DNA of 64,000 nucleotides from an uncultured Gammaproteobacteria bacterium (GCA_963810615.1 CAWEOA010000002.1:654515-718514); one strand, 5' to 3'; positions 4,537-39,935 are shown, counted from the first letter of the stretch. A program made the numbers and translations. Notes: generated by a model from the sequence alone, not told the origin.

Positions 4537-4682
4537 AAGATGTACATCCGGGCTGAAGAATGAGGGTTCGTTATTTCAAGCACTGACAAGACACACGAGG
4601 AAGCACGCGGGCAGGCGCATAGATTGCGGCCGAGCTTCCCCCCACCCCGACATCAACGTAAAATAAAATTATACACTCATCC

Positions 4683-5075: not shown

Positions 5076-5092
5076 GCTGCGTAACAAGCATT

Positions 5093-5167
5093 CACCGCAA
5101 AGACGCAAAGAATGCAGAAAAAATCCAAATATCAAATTTTTGCGGCCTTTGCGCCTTTGCGGTGAAT
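5093..5167. terminator. imperfect 19-nt inverted repeat between convergent genes; putative bidirectional terminator
   Basis: tcaccgcaaagacgcaaag and ctttgcgcctttgcggtga are reverse complements with one mismatch. They lie in the 111-bp gap between two convergent stop codons. Confidence 0.4.
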
Positions 5168-5186
5168 AGATTTTGCTTTTACTTAG

Positions 5187-6596: not shown

Positions 6597-6634
6597 GCCC
6601 AGGCTACTCGTTGTCGTTATCGTTCACTGAGAAT

Positions 6635-7093
6635 TCACATCATCAAGCGCCCGCCGCCGGCCATGACGACCACCATCAATCCGATGATCAGATTGATCCC
6701 GACCATGCGTCGGATCTGCGCCAGCTGCTTGCCGCCCGCCTCCCAGTCCTGCTCGCTCACCGCCCGCTTCAGTCGGCGAAACGGCGCGAAAAATATATGG
6801 CCGAAGATCGCCATCATGATCAAGCCCATGGCCTGCATGAGATGCACAAATATAGGCGTGTTGGCCATGGAGCCGAACATACCGAACATCATAGGATAGC
6901 CGGTCAACAACAAACTGATCACGGCAAACCACACCCAGGGGAAAAATCCGGTGAATACCCGCGCCCACAGGGTAAGGCGCTGCGGCGGTTCCAGTGTTGC
7001 CGCCGCCATCGGCCGCAACACCATATAGGCGAAGAACATACCGCCCACCCACACCGTCGCCGCCAATAGATGCAACATCAAGGCGATTGCCAT
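6635..7093 (-). CDS. small integral membrane protein (CopD-like), about 4 TM helices
   Basis: The 152-aa product has four hydrophobic helices. The family assignment is from memory only. Confidence 0.5.
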   Translation of the reverse strand: MAIALMLHLLAATVWVGGMFFAYMVLRPMAAATLEPPQRLTLWARVFTGFFPWVWFAVISLLLTGYPMMFGMFGSMANTPIFVHLMQAMGLIMMAIFGHIFFAPFRRLKRAVSEQDWEAGGKQLAQIRRMVGINLIIGLMVVVMAGGGRLMM

Positions 7094-7176
7094 CAGCTTG
7101 TCCTTTCTTGGTTAGCACTCCGTGCGCCGGAGATTAACGCATTTCGCTGCTGGTCTAAAACGCACAGCCTATTTCT

Positions 7177-10100: not shown

Positions 10101-11082
10101 CGGCGGCGGACAACCGCGCATACAAGGGCAGGATCTCGGTGTGGGGCGGATGGTGTTTGCGCAAGGCCTCGGCGGTGGCGCGGATCTCCCGTTCACCGCT
10201 GAGGAAGATGAGGATGTCGCCGCGATCGATACGGCCCAACTCGTCCACCGCATCGAGTATCGCCTGCTGCATGTCGCGATCGCGGCCGTCTTCGTCCTCG
10301 GCCAGCAAGGGACGGTAGCGCATCTCCACCGGATACATGCGTCCCGAGACCTCGATGATGGGCGCACCGTCGAAATGTTGGGCGAAACGCTGCGGATCGA
10401 TAGTGGCCGAGGTGATGATCAGTTTGAGATCGGGACGCTTGGGCAGCAATTGCTTGAGATAGCCCAGGAGAAAATCGATATTGAGGCTGCGCTCGTGGGC
10501 CTCGTCTATGATCAGGGTATCGTAGTGATCCAGATAGCGGTCGTGCTGGGTCTCGGCAAGCAGGATACCGTCGGTCATCACCTTGATGTAGGCGTCGGGA
10601 CTGGTGTGGTCGCTGAAACGCACCTTGTAGCCCACAGTCGCGCCCATGGGCGTTGCCAGTTCCTCGGCGACCCGCGCCGCCACGGTGCGCGCCGCAATAC
10701 GACGCGGCTGGGTGTGGCCTATCATCCCCGCCACGCCGCGCCCCAGGCTCAGGCAGATCTTGGGCAGTTGGGTGGTCTTGCCCGAACCGGTCTCGCCGCA
10801 CACGATCACCACCTGGTGGCTGGCGATGGCCGCGGCCAGTTCCTCGCGGCGCGCCGATACCGGCAGCTCTTCGGGGAAGCCGGGAACGGGGAGTGCCGCC
10901 CGGCGCTGTGCACAGCGCGCCTTGGAGGCGGCGATCGCCGCATTCAAGGCCTGCCATGCCTCTTCGTCAGCCGAGCGCGCGCGCTGCAACTTGTGCAGGC
11001 GTCGGCGCAGACCGTGTTGATCGCGCCGCAGGCACAAGTCTATGTCCGCCATCAGGGATTTGAGGGTGTCTTGGCGATCCAC
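7177..11082 (-). CDS. hrpA: ATP-dependent RNA helicase HrpA (DEAH box)
   Basis: The 1301-aa product has GETGSGKTTQLPK (motif I), DEAHERSL (DEAH), TSATID and a long C-terminal HA2/OB/DUF3418-type extension. Its N-terminus resembles E. coli HrpA. Confidence 0.95.
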   Translation of the reverse strand: MDRQDTLKSLMADIDLCLRRDQHGLRRRLHKLQRARSADEEAWQALNAAIAASKARCAQRRAALPVPGFPEELPVSARREELAAAIASHQVVIVCGETGSGKTTQLPKICLSLGRGVAGMIGHTQPRRIAARTVAARVAEELATPMGATVGYKVRFSDHTSPDAYIKVMTDGILLAETQHDRYLDHYDTLIIDEAHERSLNIDFLLGYLKQLLPKRPDLKLIITSATIDPQRFAQHFDGAPIIEVSGRMYPVEMRYRPLLAEDEDGRDRDMQQAILDAVDELGRIDRGDILIFLSGEREIRATAEALRKHHPPHTEILPLYARLSAAEQNKVFQSHTGRRIVLATNVAETSLTVPGIRYVIDTGLARISRYSHRAKVQRLPIEPISQASANQRAGRCGRVSAGVCVRLYAEEDYRNRPPFTAPEIQRSNLAAVILQMEVLALGDVERFPFIDPPDPRLIKDGYQTLIELGAVDDKPSPAGPVKARRLTPLGRDLVKLPVDPRIGRMILAARREQCLAEILIIASALAVQDPRERPLEAQQAADQKHARYADERSDFLAYLKLWEHYHEQARHLSNNKLRKYCRENFLSYVRIQDWRDVHSQLLSLVKPMGFRLNQQPADYEPIHRALLAGLLGNIGCKGEERDYLGARGTRFHIFPGSALFKKSPKWLMAAELVETTRLYARTVAKIEPEWVEQLAAHLVKRHYFDPHWEKSQQAVMGFERVSLYGLPLIPRRKIHYGRIDPKLSREIFIRSALVAGEYETRAPFFAHNQAAIHDVEDLEHKARRRDILVDEQTLYEFYAERIPADICDGRRFERWRREAEREDPQRLLLSKKYLMQRGAAEVSAEQFPDHLNIAGMRLPLSYHFEPGHPLDGVTVTVPLALLNQLRPEQVQWLVPGLLRDKIIALLKTLPKALRRNFVPAPNFADACLQAVAAGEGALCEVLARQLLRMTGVTIPADAWQEDALPLHLRMNVKVVRGDGETVVAMGRDVARLQGEQGEQAAATFAQLPSSDFEREQVTEWDFGELPEQVEFERHGMSLVGYPALVEEKGGVSLRLLDSLAKAETALRGGVRRLYMLQARERIKYLEKNLPGIQSMCLHYASVGDCAVLKSDLLSAITEQAFLGDRALPRSRAQFEEIKEAGLARLIPVANELCAWVAETLAVYHALLKRLKGAVKPAWLKSLSDIQEQLRHLIYSGFVTATPYGQLRHLPRYLKAVDLRLTKLEQHAGRDGPLLAQLAPLWQVYLQRAEKQRKLGSAAPALEDFRWLLEELRVSLFAQELKTAVPVSVKRLQQHWAVLDA

Positions 11083-11330
11083 GGCAAGCGTTTCGTCATT
11101 CGTTTCGGGCTAAAGCCGGGTATTTTACGCGGCAAACACCGCTTGCGCATGCGGCGGGCGACATTCATCGTGCTTGCGTGCGTTTGGCGCCACAGCTGGG
11201 AAGTCCTTCGTGAGATCTTCCGCCACTTGCCCCGTGCTTCATGTTATAAAATGGCGTGCCGGCATGGCTATTCCGCAATCGCCGGCCCCTCGTATCAACA
11301 TCCGCAGCAGTAAGTCAGAAAGGATGGGCC

Positions 11331-12284
11331 ATGGGATTGCTGGTCAATGGTCAATGGCAGGACGCCTGGTATCCCACCGAAAAGACCGGCGGCCGCTTCG
11401 TCCGTCAGGAGAGCAGCTTCCGCAACTGGGTGACCGCGGACGGCTCCTCCGGCTACCTGGCGGAGCCGGGGCGCTATCATCTCTACGTGTCGCTGGCCTG
11501 CCCCTGGGCGCACCGCACCCTGATCTTTCGCAAGCTGAAAGGACTGGAAGACAGCATTTCCCTATCGATCGTCGATCCCTATATGGGTCCCCAAGGCTGG
11601 GCCTTCAGCGACTACCCCGGCTGCATCGCCGACACGGTCAACGGCTGCGACTACCTGCACCAGCTCTACACCAAGGTCCAGGCCGATTACACCGGCCGGG
11701 TCACGGTACCGGTATTGTTCGACAAACACAGCCAAACTATCGTCAATAATGAATCGTCCGAGATCATCCGCATGCTCAATGACGCCTTCGGCGGCGCCGG
11801 ACCGGATTTCTTTCCCGCCGAATTGGAAGACGAGATGAATGCCGTCAATGCCGAGGTCTACGCCGGCATCAATAACGGCGCCTATAAGGTGGGCTTCGCC
11901 ACCCGTCAGGCCGCCTATGAAGACGCATTCGACGCATTGTTCGCCGCCCTGGATAAGCTTGAGGAGCGGCTGTCACGGCAACGTTATCTGCTGGGCGGGC
12001 GCCTCACCGCCGCTGATTGGCGGCTGTTCACCACCCTGGTGCGCTTCGACGCCGTGTATTACGGGCACTTCAAATGTAATCTGCGGCGGCTGGTGGATTA
12101 CCCGAATCTATGGGACTACCTGCGCGAGCTCTATCAAATACCGGGCGTAGCGGAGACGGTGAATATGGATCACATCAAGACCCACTACTACCGCAGCCAC
12201 ACCACCATCAATCCCATCGGTATCGTGCCCAAGGGACCCTTGCTGGACTTCACGCTGCCCCATACCCGGCAAGGCCTGTCATGA
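11331..12284 (+). CDS. yqjG: glutathionyl-hydroquinone reductase (Xi-class glutathione S-transferase) YqjG
   Basis: The N-terminus MGLLVNGQWQDAWY...FRNWVTADGSSG...YHLYVSLACPWAHRTLIFRKLKGLE matches E. coli YqjG almost residue for residue. An AAAGGA SD precedes the ATG at 11331. Confidence 0.9.
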   Translation: MGLLVNGQWQDAWYPTEKTGGRFVRQESSFRNWVTADGSSGYLAEPGRYHLYVSLACPWAHRTLIFRKLKGLEDSISLSIVDPYMGPQGWAFSDYPGCIADTVNGCDYLHQLYTKVQADYTGRVTVPVLFDKHSQTIVNNESSEIIRMLNDAFGGAGPDFFPAELEDEMNAVNAEVYAGINNGAYKVGFATRQAAYEDAFDALFAALDKLEERLSRQRYLLGGRLTAADWRLFTTLVRFDAVYYGHFKCNLRRLVDYPNLWDYLRELYQIPGVAETVNMDHIKTHYYRSHTTINPIGIVPKGPLLDFTLPHTRQGLS

Positions 12285-25366: not shown

Positions 25367-26146
25367 ATGAAGAACCAGCACGATGAATTGTGTGAACTGG
25401 GTTGGAACGACTGGTTCGATCAACGGGCAGCATGCAAACCAACAGATACTGTCGCACGCGTTGCGGCTGTCGACCGCGACCAGTTACTACTCGTGGATCA
25501 AGCCGGTCATTTTCGAGCAAAACTGTCGGGTAGCTATTTGCACCACCATCACGATTCACATGAACTACCCTGCGTGGGTGACTGGGTGTGCGTGGAGAGA
25601 CAACTCGGTGACGACTTTGGGATGATCCACACGCTCCTTGATCGCAGGACTTCGCTGCGTAGAAAGTCGGCTGGAAACAGCATCGAGCACCAAATGATCG
25701 CGGCAAACCTCGACTATGTGGTGATCGTTCAGTCATGCCAATTCGATTTCAATCTGAATCGCTTGGAACGCTATCTCGTCATGGTGTTGGATGGCGGGGC
25801 GGAGCCGTACATTTTGCTAACCAAGACAGACCTCGTCGATTTTACCGTGCTGGCCTCACAGTTGGCTGAGATAGCTTCCGCCGGTATCACCGCACCGATT
25901 TTGCCGCTAAGCAACGTCACTCATGATGGGCTGGATAATCTCAAGAGACTGCTATTACCAGGAAAAACCTATTGCTTTGTCGGTTCATCCGGGGTTGGCA
26001 AGAGCACGCTAATAAACCAGTTGATTGGCCACCAAAGGTTGGAAATAGGTGTAGTCAGTGGGACGGGAGAAGGACGGCACACGACAGTTCGACGAGAGCT
26101 GATTCGTCTCGACGGGGGCGCACTGGTCATCATTCGTACGAACTAG
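25367..26146 (+). CDS. RsgA/YjeQ-like circularly permuted GTPase, truncated at the G3 motif and lacking the C-terminal zinc-finger domain (possible pseudogene)
   Basis: It aligns with RsgA through the OB fold, the G4 block (LLTKTDL), G1 GSSGVGKSTLIN and G2 GRHTT. Where RsgA has VIDSPG the ORF reads VIIRTN-stop, and no continuation exists in any frame. No SD precedes the ATG. Confidence 0.65.
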   Translation: MKNQHDELCELGWNDWFDQRAACKPTDTVARVAAVDRDQLLLVDQAGHFRAKLSGSYLHHHHDSHELPCVGDWVCVERQLGDDFGMIHTLLDRRTSLRRKSAGNSIEHQMIAANLDYVVIVQSCQFDFNLNRLERYLVMVLDGGAEPYILLTKTDLVDFTVLASQLAEIASAGITAPILPLSNVTHDGLDNLKRLLLPGKTYCFVGSSGVGKSTLINQLIGHQRLEIGVVSGTGEGRHTTVRRELIRLDGGALVIIRTN

Positions 26147-26935: not shown

Positions 26936-26971
26936 CCCGCCGCCCCTATTATATCTGAGCATTGAACGCCC

Positions 26972-27056
26972 GCTTCTGGCCGCATTCGGAAGTAGGCGCG
27001 GTGCAACGCGAACTGGCACTTTCGACCCGAAGCGGACGTTCAGTAATACAATGTCC
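26972..27056 (+). repeat. ~85-nt conserved non-coding element, copy 1 (downstream of the CPBP gene)
   Basis: It is about 75 % identical to copy 2 by manual alignment, sharing the blocks gcttctggccg, ggaag.aggc, cgcgaactggc, tcgacccg and gcgg.cgt. Confidence 0.7.
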
Positions 27057-27362
27057 GAGCTGATGAATCTGGGCACTGGAGTAATGGGATTTCCTTGCAT
27101 AAGCCAGAGAGACGGTCTTCAGAATCAAAGCAGCCCTTTGAAAATAGAGGCTCAATTACATCCGCTTTGTAAAAAGCGATAACCCTAAATACATCATTAA
27201 TTTTGTCGGTAATTTTTACAAGTCAGAGAATGGGGGAAATATGTCTTGTATTATCTAATTGATAAAGAATATTAAAATATTTATGGCATTTAATTTGCCT
27301 TTTTATATTAAAAATTATAAGGGGGTTCTGATAACCACACAACGGAAGGGGAGGGAGCTTTT

Positions 27363-27974
27363 ATGAAAGCATACAAATTCAGCATGCGAGCATTATGCAT
27401 ATCCATAATAGCGAGTTTGCAATTGCTTGGACTTTCGCAAGAGGCAGCTGCAAGTATTATCGTCCAACTCGATAGCGTTGCGCCAGATTTAGTATTTCCT
27501 GGCAATTACCGATGGACATTCTCGGCCATAGCCTCATCAACCGATGGGTTCGGCTCATCAGTAGATAACTACTTCACCATCTATGATCTTCCCGGTTCTA
27601 TTACCACTGTTGAAGCCAGTGCCGTATATTGGGGCAGTGCATCCAGCGCTTTGACGGGAGTCACCCCAGTGGGACTGACTCCGGCTGATGATCCAAGTAA
27701 GCCTAATGTTACATTTAGATATATGGACTCTAGCGATCGTCCCGGAAACGCGGCATTTCAAGCCGGCGATCATTTCGATATCATTTTGTCAGATGGGATT
27801 CCTATCGATCTCCAGTATTCGTGGCAGGATTACAGCGCCTATCCAATTGTAAATAATCCACTGCAGAGTGGTCTGGGCACAGTTCAAAACAGCGTACCTG
27901 AGCCTGCAACTATCGGTTTAATAGGTCTCGGTTTAGCCGGATTGGGAATCAGCCGTCGAAAACGCGTCAACTAG
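27363..27974 (+). CDS. PEP-CTERM sorting-domain protein (exosortase substrate)
   Basis: It has a signal peptide and a C-terminal VPEP-ATIGLIGLGLAGLGI-SRRKR tripartite PEP-CTERM motif. A strong AGGGGAGGGAG SD precedes the start. Confidence 0.85.
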   Translation: MKAYKFSMRALCISIIASLQLLGLSQEAAASIIVQLDSVAPDLVFPGNYRWTFSAIASSTDGFGSSVDNYFTIYDLPGSITTVEASAVYWGSASSALTGVTPVGLTPADDPSKPNVTFRYMDSSDRPGNAAFQAGDHFDIILSDGIPIDLQYSWQDYSAYPIVNNPLQSGLGTVQNSVPEPATIGLIGLGLAGLGISRRKRVN

Positions 27975-27996
27975 ACGAATCCGTTATCGTGTAAGC

Positions 27997-28025
27997 AAAC
28001 CCCGCTTCGGCGGGGTTTTATTTTC
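27997..28025 (+). terminator. rho-independent terminator
   Basis: aaaccccgc-ttcg-gcggggttt is a perfect stem-loop followed by TTATTTT, and it lies 22 nt after the PEP-CTERM stop. Confidence 0.8.
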
Positions 28026-28072
28026 GTGAATCACGAGTCAAAGTGCAGCTGTGTAGTAGTGTGTAAAAGGCT

Positions 28073-28157
28073 GCTTCTGGCCGATGACGGAAGAAGGCAC
28101 AGCTAACCGCGAACTGGCGCTATCGACCCGCTGCGGGCGTCCGGTCAACATGAGCCA
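28073..28157 (+). repeat. ~85-nt conserved non-coding element, copy 2 (downstream of the PEP-CTERM gene and its terminator)
   Basis: See copy 1. The orientation is the same. Confidence 0.7.
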
Positions 28158-28372
28158 CCTGGCCAATAAGTTTCCTCCAAAACACCCAAATCTTACGGCA
28201 TCACGACTAATATGGGGTTAGACACTCCCGCCTGCTCCCTCGGTACACTCAACATCTGCAACAAATCAAACAGTGGACGATAACCTTTCAACATCAGAAT
28301 CCTCAACAATCACAACATACATGCGATGTGGAGGCGAAGGTTGCAAATACTGCACGGGAGGTTAGAACACTT

Positions 28373-28528
28373 ATGGACCTACACGAATCATTGTGTGAAA
28401 TATTAATTGCTGAAAAGATGGAGGAGAATCCACGGTTAACAAAGAAGGCTGCGGCTGAAATGGTTAATCGCGAGTTAAAAGAACAAGCGGCAGAAAATGA
28501 TGATATTTTCAGGTGTAGTGGCGATTAA
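28373..28528 (+). CDS. small hypothetical protein (51 aa)
   Basis: The ATG is preceded by GGGAGG, and the product is charged and helical (MDLHESLCEILIAEKMEENPRLTKK...). There is no homology support. Confidence 0.25.
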   Translation: MDLHESLCEILIAEKMEENPRLTKKAAAEMVNRELKEQAAENDDIFRCSGD

Positions 28529-28819
28529 CATTATATCGGGGCACATAAAAACATAGGAGTCATGCGCTGGAACCCGGTGCTGGCCAATTTTTATTTAAAA
28601 TCGTGATAATTTAATTATCTCGTTCTATATCAGTGGCCTTATGATTTAGAGGTCCACTTTCAGAGCGGACGTTCTTTCGGATTCGATACCATTCGGCAAA
28701 AGATATGGCAGCTCAATGTCTTGGGTATAACGCTTGTAAAGCAAGGTGGAAAACAGTGCTGAACATGCCATACTTTATAAAAAGATACTAAATTAGTGTG
28801 ATGCTGGGGAGGCAGTGTT

Positions 28820-29242
28820 ATGCCATACATCGTAGCTCAACATCCAAAGTTGGATGTGGTGGAACTTAAGCTCACCGGATTGATTACCGGAGTTGACTTA
28901 AGGAAAGCAACGTCCGAATGCATCGCAATACAGAAGCAGAATGGAATAAAGAGGTTTCTAGTTGATGCGAACGAGGGGGAAGTGGTCGCATCATTCAATG
29001 AGCTTTTCGAAATAGTAAGTGAGCAATATCACATTGAAGGACTCGATAAGAACAGTCGCATTGCGGTGATGCTTCCAACTACTTTAAGTGCAAAAGCCGC
29101 TGCAGATTTCTACGAAGCCGTATGCTTAAAAGGTGGGTGGAATGCACTGGTGTTTCCAAGCAATGAAAGCGCACTAGATTGGTTGATGGATACCGCTGAC
29201 ACAAGCAAGTCAACTGATAACGGGCCTCTTCACCGGTCCTAA
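28820..29242 (+). CDS. SpoIIAA-like/STAS-fold protein (DUF3478-type), paralog A
   Basis: A GGGGAGG SD precedes the start. The pattern LKLTG.ITG....EAT..CIA.QKQ...RFLVD..E.E..ASF...........RIAV.LPTT........FYE.V...GW.A.VF......A.DWL matches, as far as I recall, the SpoIIAA-like family consensus (RVLVDL.DFEGW ... RVAVVGD ... VRYF ... A..WL). Confidence 0.6.
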   Translation: MPYIVAQHPKLDVVELKLTGLITGVDLRKATSECIAIQKQNGIKRFLVDANEGEVVASFNELFEIVSEQYHIEGLDKNSRIAVMLPTTLSAKAAADFYEAVCLKGGWNALVFPSNESALDWLMDTADTSKSTDNGPLHRS

Positions 29243-29368
29243 AACGACCCAAAGCGGCAACGTCAATTTCTTGCGCTTCAGCGAATTAAGAAACACGGAA
29301 AACGGTGCGGCGCATGTCATACTTTAATAAAGCATATTAGCTTGCTGAGATATTGGAGGAAGTCGACT

Positions 29369-29773
29369 ATGCCATATACCATAACGTATGATCCTGAGTC
29401 AGATATCGTCAACCTGGCATTCACCGGGGAAATTACTGGGATAGTGATATCGGAAGCAACGTCTAAATGTATCGCCCTTCAGAAGCAGTCGCGTGCATTG
29501 CGCTTTCTAGTCGAAGTAAATGGGTGGGAAGTTGTCGCGTCATTCGTTGATATTTACAAACTTATTTACGATCAATACGCGGCAGAAGCAGCACATCGTC
29601 TATCCCGTATTGCTGTTGTACTTCCAACTACGGCAAGCGGACAAACTGCTGCAACCTTCTACGAAACTGTAAGCCAAAATGCTGGTTGGAAAGCACAGGT
29701 ATTTGCAAGCCGTAAAAATGCAATTGATTGGCTAACGACTAGCGAAAATATCAATGTCGTTGCTGCAGATTAG
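29369..29773 (+). CDS. SpoIIAA-like/STAS-fold protein (DUF3478-type), paralog B
   Basis: A GGAGGAAG SD precedes the start. It is about 45 % identical to paralog A, and both have upstream regions containing catactttaataaa. Confidence 0.6.
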   Translation: MPYTITYDPESDIVNLAFTGEITGIVISEATSKCIALQKQSRALRFLVEVNGWEVVASFVDIYKLIYDQYAAEAAHRLSRIAVVLPTTASGQTAATFYETVSQNAGWKAQVFASRKNAIDWLTTSENINVVAAD

Positions 29774-29858
29774 CGTATTTATCCAACGTAGCTCACTCAG
29801 CAGAACATCCAATTCTCGCGACACGGTAAGGTCACCTTCCCCACTCGTATGACCGCTT

Positions 29859-30236
29859 CTGGCCGGCAAGCGACCGATCGGCGCGGTCGTTCCCGGGTTG
29901 TGATGGTCTTAAACTTCAGTTTTCTCAGACATTTCCAGGGCGTCGTCAACCTCGATCCCAAGATATCTGACCGTGCTTTCCAGCTTTGTGTGCCCAAGCA
30001 GCAGCTGAACAGCTCGAAGATTCTTTGTTCTCCGGTAGATCAATGTTGCTTTTGTACGACGCAGGGTGTGTGTTCCATACTCCCCAGGATCCAGCCCAGC
30101 GAGAGCCACCCACTTTTTCACAATACGAGCGTATTGCCGCGTAGAAATATGTAGAGACTCCCTTAGCCGGCTAGGGAAAAGGAACTGACCCGAAGTGAGC
30201 TGTGCCTTGGCAATCCATGCCTCAACAGCCTCGCGC
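29859..30236. repeat. direct repeat copy 1 (3' portion of the recombinase gene), ~95 % identical to 32045-32422
   Basis: Manual alignment of the two stretches shows near-identity over about 380 nt, with a few substitutions and one 4-nt indel. Confidence 0.85.
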
Positions 30237-30544
30237 GTCTGGTCGGTCAACTCAAACTTCACCGGCTGTGCGGTCTTTTGCTGCATGACGGTCGTCCGTG
30301 ATATTGCCTTGCCGCTGTGTGCCACATCCCTCACTTGAAGCTTGACGATATCGCAGCCCCGAAGCTTGCTGTCGATTGCCAGGTTGAAAAGGGCAAGGTC
30401 TCTGATGCGTCTGGCCAATTGCAGTCGAATTCGGATTGCCCAGATCTCGCGAAGCTTCAATGGCGGCTTCGGCCCGATCAACCGATCCTTATTCCAAGGG
30501 ATGTGGGCGGCTGTGGCGGCTGTATTGTCTTGATTGATGTACAT
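29909..30544 (-). CDS. tyrosine-type site-specific recombinase/integrase (short form, catalytic domain)
   Basis: The C-terminal HTLRRTKATLIYRRT...LLLGHTKLESTVRYLGI carries the R...HxxR...Y catalytic signature of phage-integrase-family recombinases. A GGAGG SD lies 9 nt before the ATG at 30544. Confidence 0.8.
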   Translation of the reverse strand: MYINQDNTAATAAHIPWNKDRLIGPKPPLKLREIWAIRIRLQLARRIRDLALFNLAIDSKLRGCDIVKLQVRDVAHSGKAISRTTVMQQKTAQPVKFELTDQTREAVEAWIAKAQLTSGQFLFPSRLRESLHISTRQYARIVKKWVALAGLDPGEYGTHTLRRTKATLIYRRTKNLRAVQLLLGHTKLESTVRYLGIEVDDALEMSEKTEV

Positions 30545-30599
30545 GGTGTGTTTCCTCCATTCTGACTAGGGAAACACAAGTTTGGTTGATCGCAGCAGG

Positions 30600-30642
30600 T
30601 GGCGCTTGCCGACCCTTAGCCGACGTGGGCGTGAGTGTCAGC
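30600..30642 (+). repeat. partial third copy (3' half) of the ~85-nt element, about 55 nt upstream of the recombinase start codon
   Basis: tggcgcttgccgaccc..gccgacgtgggcgt aligns with tggcgctatcgaccc..gctgcgggcgt in copy 2. Confidence 0.5.
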
Positions 30643-30939: not shown

Positions 30940-31806
30940 ATGAGACTTTCCGCCTGGCCCTGGCTCGGGATCCTGGCTGCCGCCATCACGATTGGCGCGG
31001 CGTCGGAGGCACGGGCGACACCGACCTATTGGAACCTATTCAACATCGAGGGTGAGAACAGCCTCAGCGCGGGTTTCATTACCTACGCCAGCCAGATTGA
31101 CATGCTGTTCGACATCAATCGGACGGGCTTCTATCAACCGAATGGCTACGGAGCGGGCCAGAACGTCGTCGGCACCGGATCGGACGGAACGACCTACTGG
31201 AACCTATTCAACATCGAGGGTGAGAACAGCGCTTTGGCAGGCTTCATCACCTATGACTCGCAGTTCGACATGCTGTTCGACATCAACCGGACGGGCTTCT
31301 ACCAGCCGAACTTCCACGGGGCGGCCCAGAACGTCGTCGGCAGCGGGTCGGACGGAACGACCTACTGGAACCTGTTCAACTTCGAGGGCGAGAGCACGTC
31401 CAACGCGGTCTACGTTACCTATGACAGCCTGATCGACATGCTGTTCGACAACAACCGGACGGGCTCCTTCATCCCGGACGGTTACGGGGCAGCCCAGAAC
31501 GTCGTCGGCAGCGGGTCGGACGGAACGACCTACTGGAACCTATTCAACATCGAGGGTGAGAACAGCCTCAGCGCGGGTTTCATTACCTACGCCACGCTGA
31601 TCGACATGCTGAACGACACTAACCGAGTGGTGTTCGCCCAGCCGAATGGCTACGCGGCGGGCCAGAACGTCGTCGGCAGCGGCGCGACCGTGATGGCCAT
31701 AACGGGGCCGGGGCCTGTGACCACCGTTCCCGAGCCGGAGACGCTATGGTTGCTGGGGCTGGGGCTGGTCGCTCTCAGCTTTCAGGCGAGGCACCGCGTG
31801 CGCTGA
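30940..31806 (+). CDS. PEP-CTERM protein with four 57-aa tandem repeats
   Basis: It has a signal peptide, four repeats starting TYWNLFNIEGENS...QNVVGSGSDGT, and a C-terminal VPEPETLWLLGLGLVAL-SFQARHRVR motif. A GAGGAGA SD precedes the start. Confidence 0.85.
   Translation: MRLSAWPWLGILAAAITIGAASEARATPTYWNLFNIEGENSLSAGFITYASQIDMLFDINRTGFYQPNGYGAGQNVVGTGSDGTTYWNLFNIEGENSALAGFITYDSQFDMLFDINRTGFYQPNFHGAAQNVVGSGSDGTTYWNLFNFEGESTSNAVYVTYDSLIDMLFDNNRTGSFIPDGYGAAQNVVGSGSDGTTYWNLFNIEGENSLSAGFITYATLIDMLNDTNRVVFAQPNGYAAGQNVVGSGATVMAITGPGPVTTVPEPETLWLLGLGLVALSFQARHRVR
31024..31704 (+). repeat. four in-frame 171-nt tandem repeats inside the PEP-CTERM gene
   Basis: Repeats 1 and 4 are identical at the nucleotide level over more than 60 nt (acctattggaacctattcaacatcgagggtgagaacagcctcagcgcgggtttcattacctacgcc). 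Confidence 0.9.
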
Positions 31807-32044
31807 AAAAATCCGGGTCAGATCACAGTTCTTTCTAATATAGATATACATCACTGAGCCAACTCCACAAGAAGATGGATAATGGCATGCAAACCCCGTT
31901 TTGCTCCACCGTGTATACCTCAACACATCATCCAGCGCGGAAATAACCGCGATGCATGCTTTTACGCAGATCAAGACCTTCAGTTCAAGCTAGACTACTT
32001 AAAAAAGCGGACAGTCAGCCTCAAGTAAAGAACGGCTCGTATTG

Positions 32045-32440
32045 GCCGGCAAGCGACCGATCGGCGCGGCCGTTCCCAGACCGTGGTGGCCTTAACCTTC
32101 AGCTTGCTCAGACATTTCCAGGGCGTCGTTAACCTCGACCCCAAGATATCTGACAGTGCTTTCCGGCTTTGTGTGCCCAAGCAGCAGCTGAACAGCTCGA
32201 AGATTCCTTGTTCGCGGGTAGATCAACGTTGCTTTTGTACGATTCAGGCTGTGTGTTCCATCCTCCCCAGGATCCAGCCAGCCCAGCGAGAGCCACCCAC
32301 TTTTTCACAATACGAGCGTATTGCCGCGTAGAAATATGTAGAGACTCCCTTAGTCGGCTCGGGAAAAGGAGCTGACCTGAAGTGAGCTGTTCTTTAGCAA
32401 TCCATGCCTTAATAGCCTTTCGTGTCTGGGTGGACATTCA
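32045..32440 (-). pseudogene. frameshifted 3' fragment of a second recombinase gene (duplicate of 29859-30236)
   Basis: It encodes ...AIKAWIAKEQLTSGQLLFPSRLRESLHISTRQYARIVKKWVALAGL and then shifts frame at a ccagcc duplication. It has no N-terminal part and no start. Confidence 0.75.
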
Positions 32441-32720: not shown

Positions 32721-33816
32721 TTAAATAACCTCCAACTTAAATAAAACAACGATAGTCACTCGATGTTTGTGAATGGGCATAACAGGCAACAGGCGGGCGC
32801 TCAGCATGCGCCGCAATTGATTAATATGCAATGGTATTGGTGCGCCGGCGTCAGTATATAAATCACAACAGTGCTGATATTGCCTGCAGGCTAGGGCTCG
32901 GAAGCGACAGTTCGCTACTGGCCGGGGGTGAACTTTTGAATGACCGCTATCATACAGCAGGAAAGATCAATAGAAACATAGAGTCTCTACGTTTCACCGC
33001 GATGCTCAGCGAAGCCATCCCATGGTTCGACACATGAGAGTCACACATTCATACGTGAGTAGCCGATAAGTGCTAAGCTGCTATTAACGTAAACGCAGGG
33101 GAAAATGTTATATCAACCGAAGAACAACGTGAGGCAGAGGCTGCGTCCCTTGAGCAGGAACGCCTAGCCTTCAATAGAACACATACTGCATGGATCGCCG
33201 TTCAAAATCAGTTTACACCCTTTGGTAATGGACAGCCTACTCAGGACAGCATTGATCAATACTATGCTGCCGAAATTGATTGGGAAGTAGCCCAAGCAAA
33301 AGTGAAGCGTTTCGGCATCGAAACAAGGAGTGATGCATGATAATAAAGCCTACCCGAAACGACGTACACGGAGCCGCCGCCATACTGATAAAGGTAAAAG
33401 GGGCTCCCGCACTTATGAAAGTGCTCGGCACATACGGTGCCGTCCGTACCGGCCAAATTCAGATGCGCGACTGGCCTCGATTTATCACAGATTGTCAGAA
33501 AGTGGAAACTGCATAGCTATCGTTTATCTGTCCAGCCTTTTCGGATCCAAGTTGATCAATGCGAATTTGTCCACTTGAAAATTGGACACTCAGTTCACCT
33601 AGAGCAATGTCGGGTATTGGCCGACACTTGCCTTGACCGATAGGCAGGCGCGACGGGATATCAATACTGAGGACTGACAATATTCGATAACTACGGTTGT
33701 TTCAGCGTGATGCAGATGCCCAACATATTAGTTAGCGGTCGCGGCTATGAGAGACGACAGAATTAGCACGGAAGAATCATGAGCACGACGCCCTCAATTA
33801 CGATAACAGGTCGTTA

Positions 33817-34915: not shown

Positions 34916-35962
34916 TTAGCAGATACGCGGCAAGGGATCGCTGCTCAACCAGTCCACCAGGCGGTTGCCGCCGAAGGCGGTCTCCATCTCCACAAATCGA
35001 TGCTCGTCGGCGCGCACCTCGCCGATGATGACGGCATCCTTACCCAAGGGGTGATGGCGCATCACCGCCACCAGATCGTCGGCACATTGGGGCGGACACA
35101 CGGCCACCAGCTTGCCTTCGTTGGCAATGTATAAAGGGTCGAGGCCGAGGAATTCGCAGGCAGCGCTCACCGCGGGACGGACCGGGATGTCGCGCTCGCG
35201 GATGATCATCCCTACGCCGGACTGGCGCGCCCATTCATTGAGCACCGCGGCCAGGCCGCCGCGGGTGGGATCGCGTAGACAATGGATGTCCGGCGCCACC
35301 TCAATCATAGCCGCCACCAGTTCGTGCAAGGCCGCGCTGTCGGACCGCAATTCGGTCTCAAACTGCAGGTGTTCCCGCTGCGAGAGGATGGCCACGCCGT
35401 GGTCGCCGATGCTGCCGCTGAGGATGATGCGATCACCCGATCGCGCGCGGTCGGCGCCAATATTCACGTCGGACGGCACGCTGCCCACGCCGGTAGTGGT
35501 AATGAACACCCCATCGCCCTTGCCGCGCTCCACCACCTTGGTATCGCCGGTGACCACGACCACATCGGCGGCGCGCGCCGCCGCCGCCATGGAATCGACG
35601 ATGCGCCGCAAGTCCGTCAGGGGGAAGCCTTCTTCGATGATGAAGCTCGCCGACAGATACAGCGGCCGCGCCCCGGCCATAGCGATGTCGTTGACAGTGC
35701 CGTGCACCGCCAGGCTGCCGATGTCGCCGCCGGGAAAGAACAGCGGCGACACCACGAAGCTGTCTGTGGTGAGTACCAGGCGCCCGGGCGGCGGTTCGAA
35801 GGCCGCCTGATCGTTCATCGCGCGCAGCCAATCGTTGTCGAAGGCGGCGACGAATAATTCCTCGATCAGTTGCGCCGTGGCGCGCCCGCCGCTGCCGTGA
35901 CCGAGCTCAACGCGGCCATGGGCGAAATCCAGGGGTGGAAAATAATCTTTATTCTTGCTCAT
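34916..35962 (-). CDS. hypE: hydrogenase maturation protein HypE (carbamoyl dehydratase)
   Basis: It has an AIR-synthase-related fold and the conserved C-terminal PRIC with the catalytic Cys as the last residue. Confidence 0.9.
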   Translation of the reverse strand: MSKNKDYFPPLDFAHGRVELGHGSGGRATAQLIEELFVAAFDNDWLRAMNDQAAFEPPPGRLVLTTDSFVVSPLFFPGGDIGSLAVHGTVNDIAMAGARPLYLSASFIIEEGFPLTDLRRIVDSMAAAARAADVVVVTGDTKVVERGKGDGVFITTTGVGSVPSDVNIGADRARSGDRIILSGSIGDHGVAILSQREHLQFETELRSDSAALHELVAAMIEVAPDIHCLRDPTRGGLAAVLNEWARQSGVGMIIRERDIPVRPAVSAACEFLGLDPLYIANEGKLVAVCPPQCADDLVAVMRHHPLGKDAVIIGEVRADEHRFVEMETAFGGNRLVDWLSSDPLPRIC

Positions 35963-36046
35963 ACCATGATCCGTGCATCACGAACGGGCTAAATGCCAGT
36001 TTGCCACTACCTTCCTTCTCCCTTAGGGAGAGGGGACAAATACAAC

Positions 36047-37183
36047 TCAGTTCGTCACTTGATCTATCGTCCGGTCGACAAACCGGCCATAGCGATAATG
36101 CGCGGCGCAGGCCCCTTCCGACGACACCATGCAGGAACCCAGGGGATTGTCCGGGGTGCATACCGTAGCGAATACCTTGCACTGCTCCGGACGCTTGGCG
36201 CCGCGCAACACCGCGGCGCATTCGCAGGCCTTGTGATCGGGGATGGCCTCCTGGGCGATGGCGAATCTGGCCTCGGCGTCATACTCTGCGTAGGCGGTAC
36301 ACAGTTTCAAGGCACTGTGGGGCAGACTGCCCAGGCCGCGCCACTCAAATTCGTCGCGTAGCTCGAACACCTCCGCCATCAGGGCCTGGGCCTTTTGATT
36401 ACCGTCGCGCGACACCACCCGGCTGTATTCGTTTTCCAACTCGGCGCGCCCCTCGTTGAGCTGGCGGATCAATTGGCGGATCGCCTGCAGGATGTCCAGG
36501 GGCTCGAAGCCGGTGATCACCACCGGATAACCGTAGTCGCGGGCAAAGCGTTCGAAGGGCCGGCTGCCGATCACGGTACTTACGTGACCGGGTCCGACGA
36601 AGCCATCGACGTGAATGGCCTCCGCCGCCGGCGCATCGAGAATGCCCGCCATGGCCGCCGGGGTCAGCACGTGATTGCAGAATACCGTGAAGTTTTTCAG
36701 GCCGAGGCGCTGCGCCTCCTTGACCGCTACCGCGGTAGGCGGCGTGGTGGTCTCGAAACCGATGGCGAAAAACACTACCTGCCGTTCGGGGTGACGCTGG
36801 GCAACGCTCAAGGCATCCAGCGTCGAATAGATCATACGCACTTCGGCCCCCGCCGCTCGGGCCTTCATCAGGGTCGCGCCATTCTTGCCCGGCACCCGCA
36901 GCATGTCGCCGTAACTGCACAGTATCACCTCGGGCCGCCGCGCCAATGAAATCGCCGCCTCGATACAGCCCGTAGGCAGTACGCACACCGGACAACCCGG
37001 ACCATGAATCATCTCCACATTGTCCGGCAACAGTCGCTCGAGACCGTAACGCGCCAAAGTGTGGGTGTGACCGCCGCAAAATTCCATGAGGCGATAACCG
37101 CGCCCTGCATCGACCTCAGAGGCGATCGCACTGGCGAGATGCCGTGCCAGATCACCGTCACGAAAGGCCTCCAGATATCTCAT
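36047..37183 (-). CDS. hypD: hydrogenase maturation protein HypD
   Basis: It has the MRYLEAFRD start and the motifs CGGHTH, GPGCPVC and FxPGHVS, plus C-terminal CxxH/CPVC cysteines. It overlaps hypC by ATGA. Confidence 0.9.
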   Translation of the reverse strand: MRYLEAFRDGDLARHLASAIASEVDAGRGYRLMEFCGGHTHTLARYGLERLLPDNVEMIHGPGCPVCVLPTGCIEAAISLARRPEVILCSYGDMLRVPGKNGATLMKARAAGAEVRMIYSTLDALSVAQRHPERQVVFFAIGFETTTPPTAVAVKEAQRLGLKNFTVFCNHVLTPAAMAGILDAPAAEAIHVDGFVGPGHVSTVIGSRPFERFARDYGYPVVITGFEPLDILQAIRQLIRQLNEGRAELENEYSRVVSRDGNQKAQALMAEVFELRDEFEWRGLGSLPHSALKLCTAYAEYDAEARFAIAQEAIPDHKACECAAVLRGAKRPEQCKVFATVCTPDNPLGSCMVSSEGACAAHYRYGRFVDRTIDQVTN

Positions 37184-37401
37184 GATGACGTCGCCGCCTC
37201 GGCGAACAGGCGCAGGGTCTTTTCCGCCTCCATGGGATCGAGCTTGCGTAAGGCATAGCCCACATGCACGATCACCCACTCACCCACGGCGCAATCGTCA
37301 AGCAAAGCCAGGGAAATTTCTTTTGACACACCGCCCATGTCCACACGGGCGAGTTCACCTTCGCGCAATTCGGTGATTAAGGCGGGGATCGCCAGGCACA
37401 T
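37180..37401 (-). CDS. hypC: hydrogenase maturation chaperone HypC
   Basis: The 73-aa product starts MCLAIP, the invariant HypC N-terminus. Confidence 0.9.
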   Translation of the reverse strand: MCLAIPALITELREGELARVDMGGVSKEISLALLDDCAVGEWVIVHVGYALRKLDPMEAEKTLRLFAEAATSS

Positions 37402-37586
37402 GGATTTTCTCCGTAGCGGGTGCGTGAATTAGTATAGCGCAGCGATCCGTGTTACATGGCTTCATAGATTCGCGAGGACATTTCCAGTCGGACAAGCTGG
37501 TCGTGGTATTTTTATCGATGTCCTCACCCTGAACCTGCCCCTGAGGGAGAGACAAAGACTTTAAAAACATCAGACATTGCGCCACC

Positions 37587-39935
37587 TTACATTAGCGCCG
37601 CCATGGAGCTTATCGCCACCCAGGCCTGACCCAGGCTCAAGCCACCGTCGTTGGGCGGCAGTCGTTGCGCCACATGCACATTCATACCCGCATCCCGCAA
37701 TTCGGTGGACAGACTCTGAAGCAGCACGCCGTTCATGAAACAACCGCCGTTCAACACTACATGGCGCAGCGATTCCTGCCGTGCGGCACGCTGCACCCAC
37801 TCGCCGAGTCCCGCCGCCAAAGTGGCATGAAACAGCGCGGCCCCGTAAGCGGCGTCTGATTCGCGGGCGAGGCGATCGAGCAAGGGCAGTAAATTCAATA
37901 CGCCGTTCGGCTCGACACGATAATCCTCCCGGCACGGCGCCACCGGCCCGTGGCGCAGCGCCAAAGACTCCAACTGCATGGCGGCCTGCCCTTCGTAGCT
38001 GTTGCGCACAGTGATCCCCAACAGTCCGGCGGCGGCGTCGAACCAGCGGCCGGCGCTGCTGGTGACGGGGGCGTTGACATTCTTATCCAGCATTTCCTTC
38101 ACCGTCTCCGCACCTGGACCGGCAAAGCGCCGCTGGATTTCCCCACCGCGACCCAGGGCGTGCAGGGCACTGGCCGCCATGCGCCACGGTTCCCGCGCCG
38201 CGCGATCGCCACCGGGCAAGGCGAGTTCATAGATATGACTCAGGCGCCGACAGTGGGCGCCCTCCACTCGCAGCAGTTCGCCGCCCCACAGACCGTCATC
38301 ATCTCCCAGACCGAAACCGTCCAGAGCAAGACCCAACACCGGTTCGCTCACCCCCTGCTCGGCCAGCACCGCGGCGATATGGGCATGATGATGTTGGACG
38401 GCGATACAGGGCAGATCGCGCTCCGCGGCGAAACGGCGCGCCAAGCGGCTGCTGTAGAAATCGGGATGGCGGTCATGGGCGACGTACAACGGCACGATAT
38501 CCAAGGTATCCAGCCAGCGGTCGAGGGTGTGTTCCAGGGCGCGGCAGGCGGCGCCATTGTCGAGATCACCGTTGTGCTGCGAGACATAGGCCTCGTCACC
38601 GCGGGTAACACAAAAAGTATTCTTCAAATCTCCGCCCATGGACAACAGCGCCGGTCCGCCGTGAGGCAACTTGATGGGCTGCGGGACGAAGCCGCGGGCA
38701 CGGCGGATGAAGCGCGGCGCAGCGACTCCGCCGTGCAGCACGCTGTCATCGCAGCGCTGAGTGATGTCGCGATCATGACTTACGAAGAAATCGGCAATGC
38801 CACGCAGACCCGTAAAGGCCTCGCGGTTATCGGTCACCAGGGGCTCGCCGCCCACATTGGCGGAGGTGCAGACCAGGACTAATGCCTGTGTCTGCTGCAG
38901 CCATGCCGTACCGACGGGGCGACCTGCCGCCTCATGAAACAATAGATAGTGCAGCGGCGTATACGGCAGCATCACACCCAGGTGGGCGATGCCCGGCGCG
39001 ACACCGGCAAGGGTAATATCACAGGCTGCGGTTTTCTCCAACACAACGATAGGACGTGCCGCCGACTCCAATAAATTCCTTTGGCCCGAATCGCACCGTA
39101 CCCAAGGCGACAAGGAGGCGCAATTGGCGGCCATCACCGCGAAGGGCTTGGCCTCGCGGCCCTTACGCACGCGCAGGCGTGCCACCGCCCCCGCGTTGCG
39201 GGCATCGCACAACAGATGAAAACCGCCCAGACCCTTGAGGGCGACGATGCGTCCGGCGGCCAGCGCCGCCAGGGTCGTGGCGATAATATCCTCCACCGGG
39301 AGGAGCTCACCTTCAGCATCGTGAAAATGCAATCGCGGCCCGCACTCCGGGCAGGTATTGGCCTGGGCGTGAAAGCGCCGTGCACTCGGATGCTGATATT
39401 CGCTGATACAAACCGGGCATTGCTCAAAGCCCGCCATGCTGGTGTTATGGCGGTCGAAGGGCAAGGCCCGGCTGATAGTGAAGCGCGGACCGCAGTGCAC
39501 GCAATTGATGAAGGGATAGCGACAGCGGCGATCACCAGGATCGAACAGTTCGCCAAGGCAATCGGCACATACCGCCGCATCCGCAGCGATGGCGGTACGC
39601 GCGGCATCCGTCCGGCTGGCGGCGATGAAAAACGGCGGCGGCGTGGCCAGCACCGCAACGACGCTTTGCTCCACGGCGATGATGTGCGCCTGCGGCGGCG
39701 CAGCGCGCAGGCGCACCAGAAAGGATTGTAGTGCGTTCGCCCCGCCCTGCAGCTCGATCTCCACGCCCTCGGCGCAATTACATACCCAGCCGCACAACCC
39801 CAATTCAGTGGCCAACCTGTATACAAAGGGGCGAAACCCCACACCCTGCACTTGGCCACGCACCAGGATGCGGTGACGCAGGACTTTCGCGCCATGTTGC
39901 GGGGCGCCGATCGTGTCGCGTTCAGTGCTTGTCAT
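37587..39935 (-). CDS. hypF: carbamoyltransferase HypF
   Basis: It has an N-terminal acylphosphatase domain (VRGQVQGVGFRPFV), two CxxC...CxxC zinc-finger pairs, a YrdC-like domain and a Kae1-like domain. The length is 782 aa. Confidence 0.9.
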   Translation of the reverse strand: MTSTERDTIGAPQHGAKVLRHRILVRGQVQGVGFRPFVYRLATELGLCGWVCNCAEGVEIELQGGANALQSFLVRLRAAPPQAHIIAVEQSVVAVLATPPPFFIAASRTDAARTAIAADAAVCADCLGELFDPGDRRCRYPFINCVHCGPRFTISRALPFDRHNTSMAGFEQCPVCISEYQHPSARRFHAQANTCPECGPRLHFHDAEGELLPVEDIIATTLAALAAGRIVALKGLGGFHLLCDARNAGAVARLRVRKGREAKPFAVMAANCASLSPWVRCDSGQRNLLESAARPIVVLEKTAACDITLAGVAPGIAHLGVMLPYTPLHYLLFHEAAGRPVGTAWLQQTQALVLVCTSANVGGEPLVTDNREAFTGLRGIADFFVSHDRDITQRCDDSVLHGGVAAPRFIRRARGFVPQPIKLPHGGPALLSMGGDLKNTFCVTRGDEAYVSQHNGDLDNGAACRALEHTLDRWLDTLDIVPLYVAHDRHPDFYSSRLARRFAAERDLPCIAVQHHHAHIAAVLAEQGVSEPVLGLALDGFGLGDDDGLWGGELLRVEGAHCRRLSHIYELALPGGDRAAREPWRMAASALHALGRGGEIQRRFAGPGAETVKEMLDKNVNAPVTSSAGRWFDAAAGLLGITVRNSYEGQAAMQLESLALRHGPVAPCREDYRVEPNGVLNLLPLLDRLARESDAAYGAALFHATLAAGLGEWVQRAARQESLRHVVLNGGCFMNGVLLQSLSTELRDAGMNVHVAQRLPPNDGGLSLGQAWVAISSMAALM

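Follow-up and report, generated by a model that had tools for sequence, protein, structure and literature searches.

The window analysed here is a stretch of 64,000 nucleotides from an uncultured Gammaproteobacteria bacterium (GCA_963810615.1, CAWEOA010000002.1:654515-718514), and all island counts and shuffles given below refer to this full 64 kb. From about 25.0 to 34.9 kb it contains a low-GC island (40-54% GC versus 58-66% in the flanks, with the GC drop at about 25 kb) whose genes encode a short RsgA-like open reading frame (ORF), a CPBP protease, two PEP-CTERM proteins, two SpoIIAA-like paralogues, an intact 211-amino-acid tyrosine recombinase and a truncated second copy of that recombinase. 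Two short non-coding elements, A and B, stand among these genes. Judged from their sequence, each is probably a pair of inverted core recombination sites for the Xer-like recombinase encoded nearby (1.7 kb). The elements, the recombinase genes and all the predicted sites of the island are listed here, beginning with A and B.

26964-27041, plus strand: element A, a gene-less pair of inverted core sites, starting 28 nucleotides past the CPBP stop codon
26964-26995: left site of A, GAACGCCCGCTT / CTGGCCGC / inner arm, 20.6 bits
27010-27041: right site of A, GAACTGGCACTT / TCGACCCG / AAGCGGACGTTC, 23.8 bits
28065-28142, plus strand: element B, a second gene-less pair, oriented as A, after a PEP-CTERM gene and its terminator, 21.2 and 12.4 bits
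29847-29878, plus strand: site E, the 3' end of the recombinase unit, GTATGACCGCTT / CTGGCCGG / CAAGCGACCGAT, 23.5 bits
29909-30544, minus strand: 211-amino-acid tyrosine recombinase, a catalytic domain with a single N-terminal helix before it
30548-30577, minus strand: hairpin of the recombinase gene in which the Shine-Dalgarno (SD) sequence is paired with an upstream anti-SD sequence (GTGTTTCC...GGAAACAC)
30597-30628, minus strand: site C, the 5' end of the recombinase unit, outer arm CCACGTCGGCTAA, centre GGGTCGG, inner arm CAAGCGCCAC, 15.5 bits
32030-32061, plus strand: site F, the 3' end of the truncated recombinase copy, 16.5 bits, at the start of an 88-91% direct repeat of 29860-30249
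32092-32437, minus strand: truncated, frame-shifted second recombinase copy (C-terminal half), matched by tblastn to residues 99-210 in two frames, with a weak PF00589 match
29860-30249 and 32043-32436: direct repeats from the 3' half of the recombinase gene, 88-91% identical
32906-32937, plus strand: site D, a solo core site, GACAGTTCGCTA / CTGGCCGG, 18.1 bits, with inverted matches to the inner arms of A and B
33605-33636, plus strand: solo core site with an inner-arm-like hairpin next to it, 17.0 bits
25122-25153, minus strand: solo core site at the left island edge, outer arm GAAGGTCTGCGTT followed by the centre GGGTCGA, 15.6 bits
29232-29263, minus strand: weak solo core site that adjoins the first SpoIIAA-like gene at its stop codon, 11.2 bits, possibly a chance match

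A recombinase gene together with its inverted site pair is called a unit below (about 760-790 bp), and the bit scores come from a 20-nucleotide matrix built from about 130 unit junctions, E and C among them.

The first-pass annotation had reported co-oriented copies of a non-coding element, about 75% identical, at 26972-27056 and 28073-28157; the repeat is real, but its 3' ends had been placed about 15 nucleotides too far. A repeat search of the window aligns 26965-27044 with 28066-28145 in the same orientation at 74% identity over 80 ungapped nucleotides, and the likeness ends at the boundaries 26964-27041 and 28065-28142, which give 78 nucleotides to each element. A profile built from A and B finds no full copies in the window other than these two (E about 2e-22 each). 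The degenerate 23-mer core CGCGAACTGGCRCTWTCGACCCG occurs twice, at A and at B, versus not once in 100 shuffles. The 11-mer GCTTCTGGCCG is exact at 26972, 28073 and 29855 only and has one mismatch at 32914; with up to one mismatch allowed there are seven matches versus 2.2 expected, and no shuffle reached seven. The short inverted repeats said to lie inside the copies are also present. Because the CPBP protease and PEP-CTERM protein genes upstream of A and B are unrelated to each other, the refuting case put forward at that stage, that the element is the 3' untranslated region (UTR) of a duplicated gene, does not apply.

Each element is composed of core sites of about 32 bp, in which the outer arm (12 nucleotides, consensus GAAyGTCCGCTT) is followed by a centre of 8 bp, either CTGGCCGG or of the GGGTCG variant, and then by the inner arm (12 nucleotides). 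The 12-8-12 geometry is derived from matrix matches that overlap on opposite strands, whose overlaps peak sharply at exactly 32 bp (12 of 16). The window has ten matches that reach 13 bits or more, two of them (E and C) being sites that went into the matrix, and all ten fall within the island (25.0-33.7 kb; the island makes up 14% of the window); the dinucleotide-shuffle mean is 1.1. A partial copy that had been noticed at 30600-30642, near the recombinase start, proved to be one core site, C, and what had been suspected as a degenerate copy at 32895-32930 is the single site D; the sites at 29847, 32030, 33605 and 25153 and the weak one at 29263 are additional to those seen at first. Sites with the GGGTCG centre stand at 27041, 28142 and 30628. 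The order along the island is 25153(-), 26964(+) 27041(-), 28065(+) 28142(-), 29847(+) recombinase 30628(-), 32030(+). Sites of the GGCC type in the window all point one way and those of the GGTC type all point the other; with the two centre types so opposed, gene modules come to lie between outer arms, and the fillers and the recombinase gene between inner arms.

A and B carry the arms and both centre types of E and C, the two sites around the recombinase gene. On the strand of the recombinase, A has the form GAACGTCCGCTT-CGGGTCGA-[filler]-CGGCCAGA-AGCGGGCGTTC, and B has the same layout. The site spacing in both is 77 nucleotides, and where the unit has its gene there are only 14 nucleotides between the two core sites and 40 between the centres. 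Within the filler, the left-hand stretch (AAAGTGCCAG in A and ATAGCGCCAG in B, with the common form AwAGyGCCAG) is similar to GCAAGCGCCAC, the left inner arm of the unit in the window. Since this architecture is that of the unit with a short filler in place of the gene, we regard A and B, on sequence grounds, as miniature, gene-less and presumably non-autonomous versions of the recombinase unit. The proposal that they could belong to a MITE (miniature inverted-repeat transposable element) family therefore came close in form, though an ordinary MITE they are not.

The recombinase itself appears to be a Xer-like catalytic domain without a core-binding domain. PF00589 covers residues 45-195, and the positions of the Arg, HxxR, His and Tyr residues are kept in an alignment with the catalytic domain of XerD. 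In an AlphaFold2 model (mean predicted local distance difference test score, 75), residues 1-24 are disordered, one helix spans residues 30-42 and the catalytic domain follows; the best fold matches, XerA, XerH, Cre, XerD and IntI, are all longer proteins of 266-350 amino acids. It is from this domain extent, the single-helix N-terminus and the length of the fold matches that the core-binding domain is predicted to be missing. The protein scores below every curated family cut-off tested, and far below it for the XerC, XerD and XerA models. FimB/FimE-type models gave 26.5 bits (NF007371, cut-off 222) and 20.4 bits (NF007370, cut-off 221), and integron-integrase models matched residues 131-195 only, with 29.4 bits for TIGR02249 (cut-off 265) and 22.1 bits for NF011946 (cut-off 435). 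A search of the E. coli genome gave only weak matches to the conserved catalytic motif, and an exact-protein look-up of the window recombinase returned no contig.

Both ends of the gene have structured flanks that recur in its relatives. Per-sequence folding found an equivalent SD hairpin, with differing stem sequences, in 19 of 19 diverse family members, and by analogy this hairpin looks like the translational shielding of many insertion sequences against read-through transcripts. The stems vary (GUGUUUCC/GGAAACAC, GUCCUCC/GGAGGAC, CAUACUCC/GGAGUAUG and others), and the loci that have them include L001, L007, L014, L018, L020, L026, L034, L037, L051, L056, L063 and L076. At the other end, the inner arm of site E is the right arm of a hairpin 3' of the recombinase stop codon, and this hairpin followed by CCGGCCAGAAGCGG is kept in most of 100 family members. 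Site C lies 65-84 nucleotides upstream of the recombinase ATG, a position conserved in L001, L006, L014, L015 and L016.

This family is very large. All 8,000 candidates that were scored pass E <=0.001, so public data hold at least 8,000 protein clusters. The best 120 homologues are 70-100% identical and include named members from Salinisphaera and Mariprofundus as well as metagenome-assembled genomes (MAGs) assigned to Methylomirabilis and Acidoferrales. With one genome scanned per species, 80 loci were obtained, mostly from Pseudomonas, Paraburkholderia and Caballeronia, with some from assembled genomes labelled Chloroflexota and Phycisphaerae; identity remains 70-90% from Pseudomonas and Paraburkholderia to MAGs assigned to Chloroflexota, Phycisphaerae and Acidobacteria. 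Plasmids contributed 335 matching records, conjugative plasmids included, among them pMOL30 of Cupriavidus metallidurans and P. aeruginosa megaplasmids; in all these records the annotation reads just 'tyrosine-type recombinase/integrase'. We found no description of the family or of its site sequences in the searchable literature, whose coverage of journals is partial, so that an earlier description is possible.

Across this family the unit behaves as a discrete segment. Recombinase genes at least 99% identical occur in unrelated contexts, for example in Stutzerimonas (L034) and on a P. aeruginosa plasmid (L096), and the homology of such copies ends 45-77 nucleotides upstream of the start codon and 45-60 nucleotides past the stop codon, which is inside the centres. 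The left end of a unit consists of an outer arm (..GAAyGTCCGCTT), a centre (CTGGCCGG or tGGGTCGG) and an inner arm TTAGCGACC (GCAAGCGCC in the lineage of the window); the right end consists of the post-stop hairpin with the inner arm as its right arm (GGTCGCTAA / GGTCGCTTGC), the centre CCGGCCAG and the outer arm AAGCGGACATTC. The right end is thus an inverted repeat of the left. Inner arms and centres move with the gene and outer arms vary by context, and inner arms are more alike within a unit than between units (6.3 versus 5.2 of 10, p <0.001). Inner and outer arms are nonetheless related in sequence (GnC(C)GCT versus AGCGnC). The idea of a palindromic target was rejected: outer arms of the same unit are no more complementary than arms taken from other units.

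Two further arrangements were seen at recombinase loci. In the metagenome contigs L001-L005 (recombinase P0004), an identical block made up of a gene for a 550-amino-acid pyridine-nucleotide-disulphide oxidoreductase (whose domain content is MerA-like), 495 bp of spacer and the recombinase unit is joined to three downstream contexts, with divergence exactly after GACCGCTTCGGGTCG, a site centre. Two or three co-oriented recombinase copies stand 4-10 kb apart in L014 (three in 20 kb), L021, L034, L045 and L037, and likewise in the window.

The sites as a class show the same behaviour as the unit ends. We compared about 150 related loci and scanned 1.46 Mb of them with the matrix, which gave 555 matches versus 85 in shuffles. 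Homology between loci ends within 8 nucleotides of a predicted centre at 49 of 98 endpoints, versus 0.7 expected, and at 5 of the 17 endpoints away from recombinase genes, versus 0.09 expected. Plus/minus pairs fall into distinct spacings: those at 754-793 nucleotides are recombinase units, and those at 65 nucleotides (n = 16, mostly Pseudomonas) are gene-less with a 26-nucleotide hairpin-like filler. A mini-element in L014 carries the right inner arm of the unit. L107 and L115 share their sequence up to a centre and diverge beyond it, and in L124 and L130 a 121-nucleotide filler is 98% identical while the outer arms and both flanks differ. A and B are ordinary members of their family. A metagenome contig from another organism, L123, has two 78-nucleotide elements of the A type, 85% identical to A, and a third site; there the elements separate single ORFs that are unrelated to those of the window. 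The suggestion that copies delimit single ORFs accordingly holds in the window and in L123, but not as a family-wide rule of an ORF followed by an element, since 29 hybrid pairs show no bias in polarity (5 versus 9, with 5 both and 10 neither).

Sites and recombinases are associated, in number and in kind. With unit junctions excluded, site density is about 3 per 10 kb within 3 kb of a recombinase gene and falls to 0.4 per 10 kb at 10 kb. At loci with GGCC/GGCC units, 63 of 75 neighbouring sites are GGCC, and at loci with GGTC/GGTC units 39 of 49 are GGTC; units whose left centre is GGTC and whose right centre is GGCC exceed the opposite combination 20:1. The original suspicion that the repeats are recombination sites tied to the recombinase is supported by the arms and both centres that they have in common with its flanks, by their confinement to the island and by the family breakpoints in the centres.

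The sites are also met at the ends of a transposable element. Immediately before about 45 of 54 IS1182-family ends (GATTCTGTTGAAAAAG or CAGGCTGTGTAAAAAC) stands a half core site, made up of an arm and the initial 4-5 nucleotides of the centre, as in GAATGACCGCTTCTGGCC|GATTCTG; the loci are L015, L019, L025, L028, L030, L033, L034, L041, L045, L053, L056, L061, L069, L096, L153 and L156. One of these IS1182-family elements is 97% identical to ISCfr1, and on the E. coli IncF resistance plasmid NZ_CP020510.1 (L156) a site remnant flanks ISCfr1. From these junction sequences, IS1182-family elements appear to insert specifically into the centres of the sites. In 15 cases half sites on the same strand stand in tandem at a fixed spacing of 34-35 nucleotides (L045 3908/3942, L093 4210/4244, L048 10675/10709, L065 8247/8281 and others), and these may be nested or abutting remnants.

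A working mechanism can be outlined. Dimers of the 211-amino-acid recombinase would bind the two related arms of a site (GnC(C)GCT and AGCGnC) and catalyse strand exchange within the 8-bp centre with another site of the same centre. Since sites of the same centre are co-oriented in the island, exchange between successive elements would excise or insert a circle with one gene and one element; exchange between the left sites of A and B, for example, would release a 1,101-bp circle of this composition. Segments between inverted sites could move by either of two routes. For the GGCC type, the observed junctions would be reproduced exactly if a circle bearing an 'inner-inner' site and a target with an 'outer-outer' site underwent a single exchange in the palindromic GGCC; outer-outer sites do exist, for example in L016 at 9480. 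Where the two centres differ, molecules could trade fillers, recombinase genes or gene modules by a double exchange, much as happens when cassette exchange is engineered. In the source genome the system may still be active. We tentatively propose, with somewhat less than even confidence, that such loci form a distinct and very abundant class of minimal modules, in which a catalytic-domain recombinase of about 200 amino acids sits within inverted 12-8-12 sites, gene-less pairs accompany it, arrays are shuffled, excised and captured through two heterospecific centres in a natural cassette exchange independent of integrons and pdif, and ISCfr1-like IS1182 elements use the sites as insertion targets.

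Several observations weigh against reading A and B as recombination sites of this protein. The sites that flank a unit or filler are inverted, which makes simple excision between them impossible, and the right site of B is degenerate (12.4 bits). Outer arms match no better within a unit than between units (7.5 versus 7.7 matches of 15, p = 0.82). A metagenome scan for the inner-arm motif of A and B found 45 contigs, 239 kb in all and mostly 1-5 kb each, and a recombinase homologue lies on only one of these short contigs. On the 141-kb Thauera plasmid pTX1, which has a single recombinase gene, strong sites are dispersed rather than clustered, although this census is only indicative, as the unit of the plasmid belongs to a divergent subfamily and the matrix misses its own junctions. 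The association of sites with recombinases is thus statistical, and sites can stand far from a recombinase gene, as expected if the protein acts in trans, and as equally predicted if the sites were palindromes of the host. No unoccupied counterpart of an occupied A or B site was found, and a search for an unoccupied site through relatives of the P. aeruginosa megaplasmid found none, the homology ending 1.4 kb into the query. Nor were swapped flanks, the mark of an inversion polymorphism, seen when left and right flanks were compared among about 100 units, one genome per species being a weak test. Finally, in the close relative L103 (ENA ERZ25039549 contig_31646), where the island is 99.3-99.6% identical with A and B unchanged, 2,183 bp between the recombinase copies are absent, comprising the N-terminal half of the recombinase, site C and the 288-amino-acid PEP-CTERM gene. 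A loss of exactly 2,183 bp resembles a site-specific excision, but the single surviving recombinase copy (L103:3470-3960) is a mosaic of E-type and F-type patches, which points to homologous recombination or gene conversion instead.

The L103 comparison and the decay of B also bear on the strongest alternative, that A and B survive as inert fossils, for example as units with internal deletions or as scars, and have ceased to recombine in the source genome. B, besides its degenerate right site, lacks the folding of A, the second recombinase copy is truncated, and the sole structural difference between L103 and the window is due to homologous recombination, A and B having stayed as they were. 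Against this, the intact recombinase keeps all its catalytic residues, the sites of A (20.6 and 23.8 bits) score as high as those of the recombinase itself, and elsewhere gene-less pairs recur in differing contexts with their breakpoints in the centres. We consider fossil status unlikely, though it deserves more credit than any of the alternatives that follow.

A second explanation would make the outer arms and centres pre-existing host palindromes of the repetitive extragenic palindrome (REP) type, mere targets of mobile elements such as the recombinase unit, the short fillers and the IS1182 family. That outer arms vary by context while inner arms travel with the unit fits this, as do single sites with two outer-type arms (L016 at 9480) and the half sites abutted by IS1182-family ends in some 45 of 54 cases. 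Against it, the sites cluster near recombinase genes with the centre type of the local unit and in the window are confined to the island, and the kinship of inner and outer arms (GnC(C)GCT versus AGCGnC) fits two binding sites of one protein. No gene for a transposase of the REP-associated tyrosine transposase (RAYT) type was noticed in the examined loci, although no search was aimed at one. This explanation seems improbable to us.

The earlier alternative of a small RNA (sRNA), and with it any structured RNA such as a 3' UTR stabiliser or a terminator, is very unlikely. A and B do lie at gene 3' ends in sense orientation, and A folds as an 80-nucleotide imperfect hairpin better than its shuffles (z -2.0 on the plus strand, -2.4 on the minus strand), with outer arms complementary at 13 of 14 positions. 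B, in contrast, forms no stable hairpin (z about 0) and is preceded by a canonical terminator; the same arms are found on both strands and around a protein-coding gene. Rfam gave no match to the elements, either in the whole window at gathering thresholds or in 24.9-33.8 kb at E up to 1. The check on structure and covariation that had been recommended was thus positive for the folding of A and not for that of B; covariation was slight. Across 19 gene-less pairs, 72.2% of the cells in the full palindromic structure are paired, versus 68.7% when partners are shuffled (3 of 500 shuffles reach the observed value); sliding the partner leaves 25-45% paired, and RNAalifold finds just seven invariant pairs. 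The symmetry of the elements is therefore mainly that of two inverted binding sites, with selection for base-pairing modest at best. Since 68.7% pairing survives the shuffling of partners, these figures favour double-strand core sites over a folded substrate of the attC kind.

Known attC sites have conserved R'' (RYYYAAC) and R' (GTTRRRY) boxes, with the crossover at the G/TT of the cassette boundary. The integron attC/attI logic read into the locus at first, with the island as a cassette array or a cluster of attC sites lacking integron-integrases (CALIN), is the least probable explanation of all: A is indeed an imperfect palindrome of about 80 nucleotides directly after an ORF, beginning ..TGAAC and ending GTTCA.., and repeats separate small unrelated ORFs in the window and in L123, but IntI is absent (29 bits for a cut-off of 265 and 22 bits for one of 435), the site matrix shows little conservation at the AAC/GTT positions (0.3-0.8 bits), each element has two inverted sites with breakpoints about 14 nucleotides inside it, in the 8-bp centre rather than at a terminal GTT, and folded-strand covariation is weak.

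The remaining features of the island and its surroundings are as follows.

25367-26146: RsgA-type GTPase ORF, 259 amino acids only, inside the low-GC island and adjoining the CPBP protease gene
27997-28018: canonical intrinsic terminator of the first PEP-CTERM gene, upstream of element B
28820-29242 and 29342-29773: adjacent SpoIIAA-like (PF11964) paralogues, 71% identical over 139 nucleotides

The Pfam match of the RsgA-type ORF stops 4 residues short of its stop codon, and the ORF may be a truncated or accessory copy. Homologues of the SpoIIAA-like genes in metagenomes L101 and L102 have a 66-nucleotide gene-less site pair about 140 nucleotides upstream. The gene for the 288-amino-acid PEP-CTERM protein contains a 168-nucleotide unit three times in tandem (31022-31657; 79-80% identical), which is a repeated 56-amino-acid module. 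Hydrogenase maturation genes (34916-39935; hypE 34916-35962) adjoin the island, and on the metagenome contig L001 an 86%-identical recombinase gene is also found beside [NiFe]-hydrogenase and hyp genes (2074-11637); this common neighbourhood may reflect related hosts rather than a functional link.

Taken as recombination sites of the 211-amino-acid protein, A and B belong to what appears to be an undescribed and very widespread variant of modular site-specific recombination. If this is correct, a recombinase family of at least 8,000 protein clusters would be the engine of an unnoticed modular gene-shuffling system, which would explain small mosaic islands such as that of the window and would add a third natural 'cassette' logic to those of integrons and pdif modules. 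A recombinase this small, whose 32-bp site is defined and whose two centres are naturally heterospecific, would also appeal to genome engineers. Moreover, as ISCfr1-like elements appear to insert precisely into the centres, the system would be tied to a transposable element common on Enterobacterales resistance plasmids.

Several known systems resemble this one in part. With integrons it shares a tyrosine recombinase, imperfect palindromes of about 60-140 nucleotides between small unrelated genes, a horizontally acquired array and, in the island, elements that follow ORFs in constant orientation. Unlike an integron integrase, the recombinase has neither the IntI-specific insertion nor a core-binding domain, and its gene in the window converges on the array, whereas an integrase gene diverges from it. 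Where an integron has one folded single-strand site with exchange at a GTT, the element has two complete core sites of the double-strand type and an internal exchange point; an attI/Pc platform is missing. As in MITEs, A and B are short and non-coding, have the terminal inverted repeats of a coding unit and belong to a family that recurs in varied contexts; the parent, however, encodes a PF00589 tyrosine recombinase instead of a DDE or HUH transposase, the supposed inverted repeats are complete core sites, the outer halves of which remain in the flanking DNA, and at unit junctions we found no target-site duplication beyond the shared centre. FimB and FimE, acting at fimS, are likewise tyrosine recombinases of about 200 amino acids without a core-binding domain that work on short inverted repeats, and the intervening segment could in principle invert here too; the sequence likeness is weak, though, the bracketed segment is the recombinase gene itself, and the units occur in many genomes and contexts. 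Cre/loxP and FLP/FRT offer core sites with inverted arms of about 12-13 bp around an 8-bp centre, and engineered recombinase-mediated cassette exchange uses pairs of sites with two different centres around a segment. The sites described here differ in being natural and multi-copy, with non-identical arms in one site, and the protein lacks the N-terminal domain with which Cre clamps DNA.

By analogy, the closest counterpart in logic is the arrangement of pdif modules, which are known from Acinetobacter plasmids and depend on XerC/XerD. These also have short core sites in alternating inverted orientation, with the arms of one type belonging to a module and those of the other type to its neighbour; they also consist of one or two genes in varied contexts with breakpoints at the sites. 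The dif site has an 11-6-11 geometry. The sites of the present family are instead 12-8-12, with a consensus (GAAyGTCCGCTT-CTGGCCGG) unrelated to dif. They come in two centre variants, and very short gene-less 'modules' with 26-40 nucleotides between the centres are common. In place of the host XerC/XerD, the candidate recombinase is a dedicated, single small protein whose gene is itself one of the modules.

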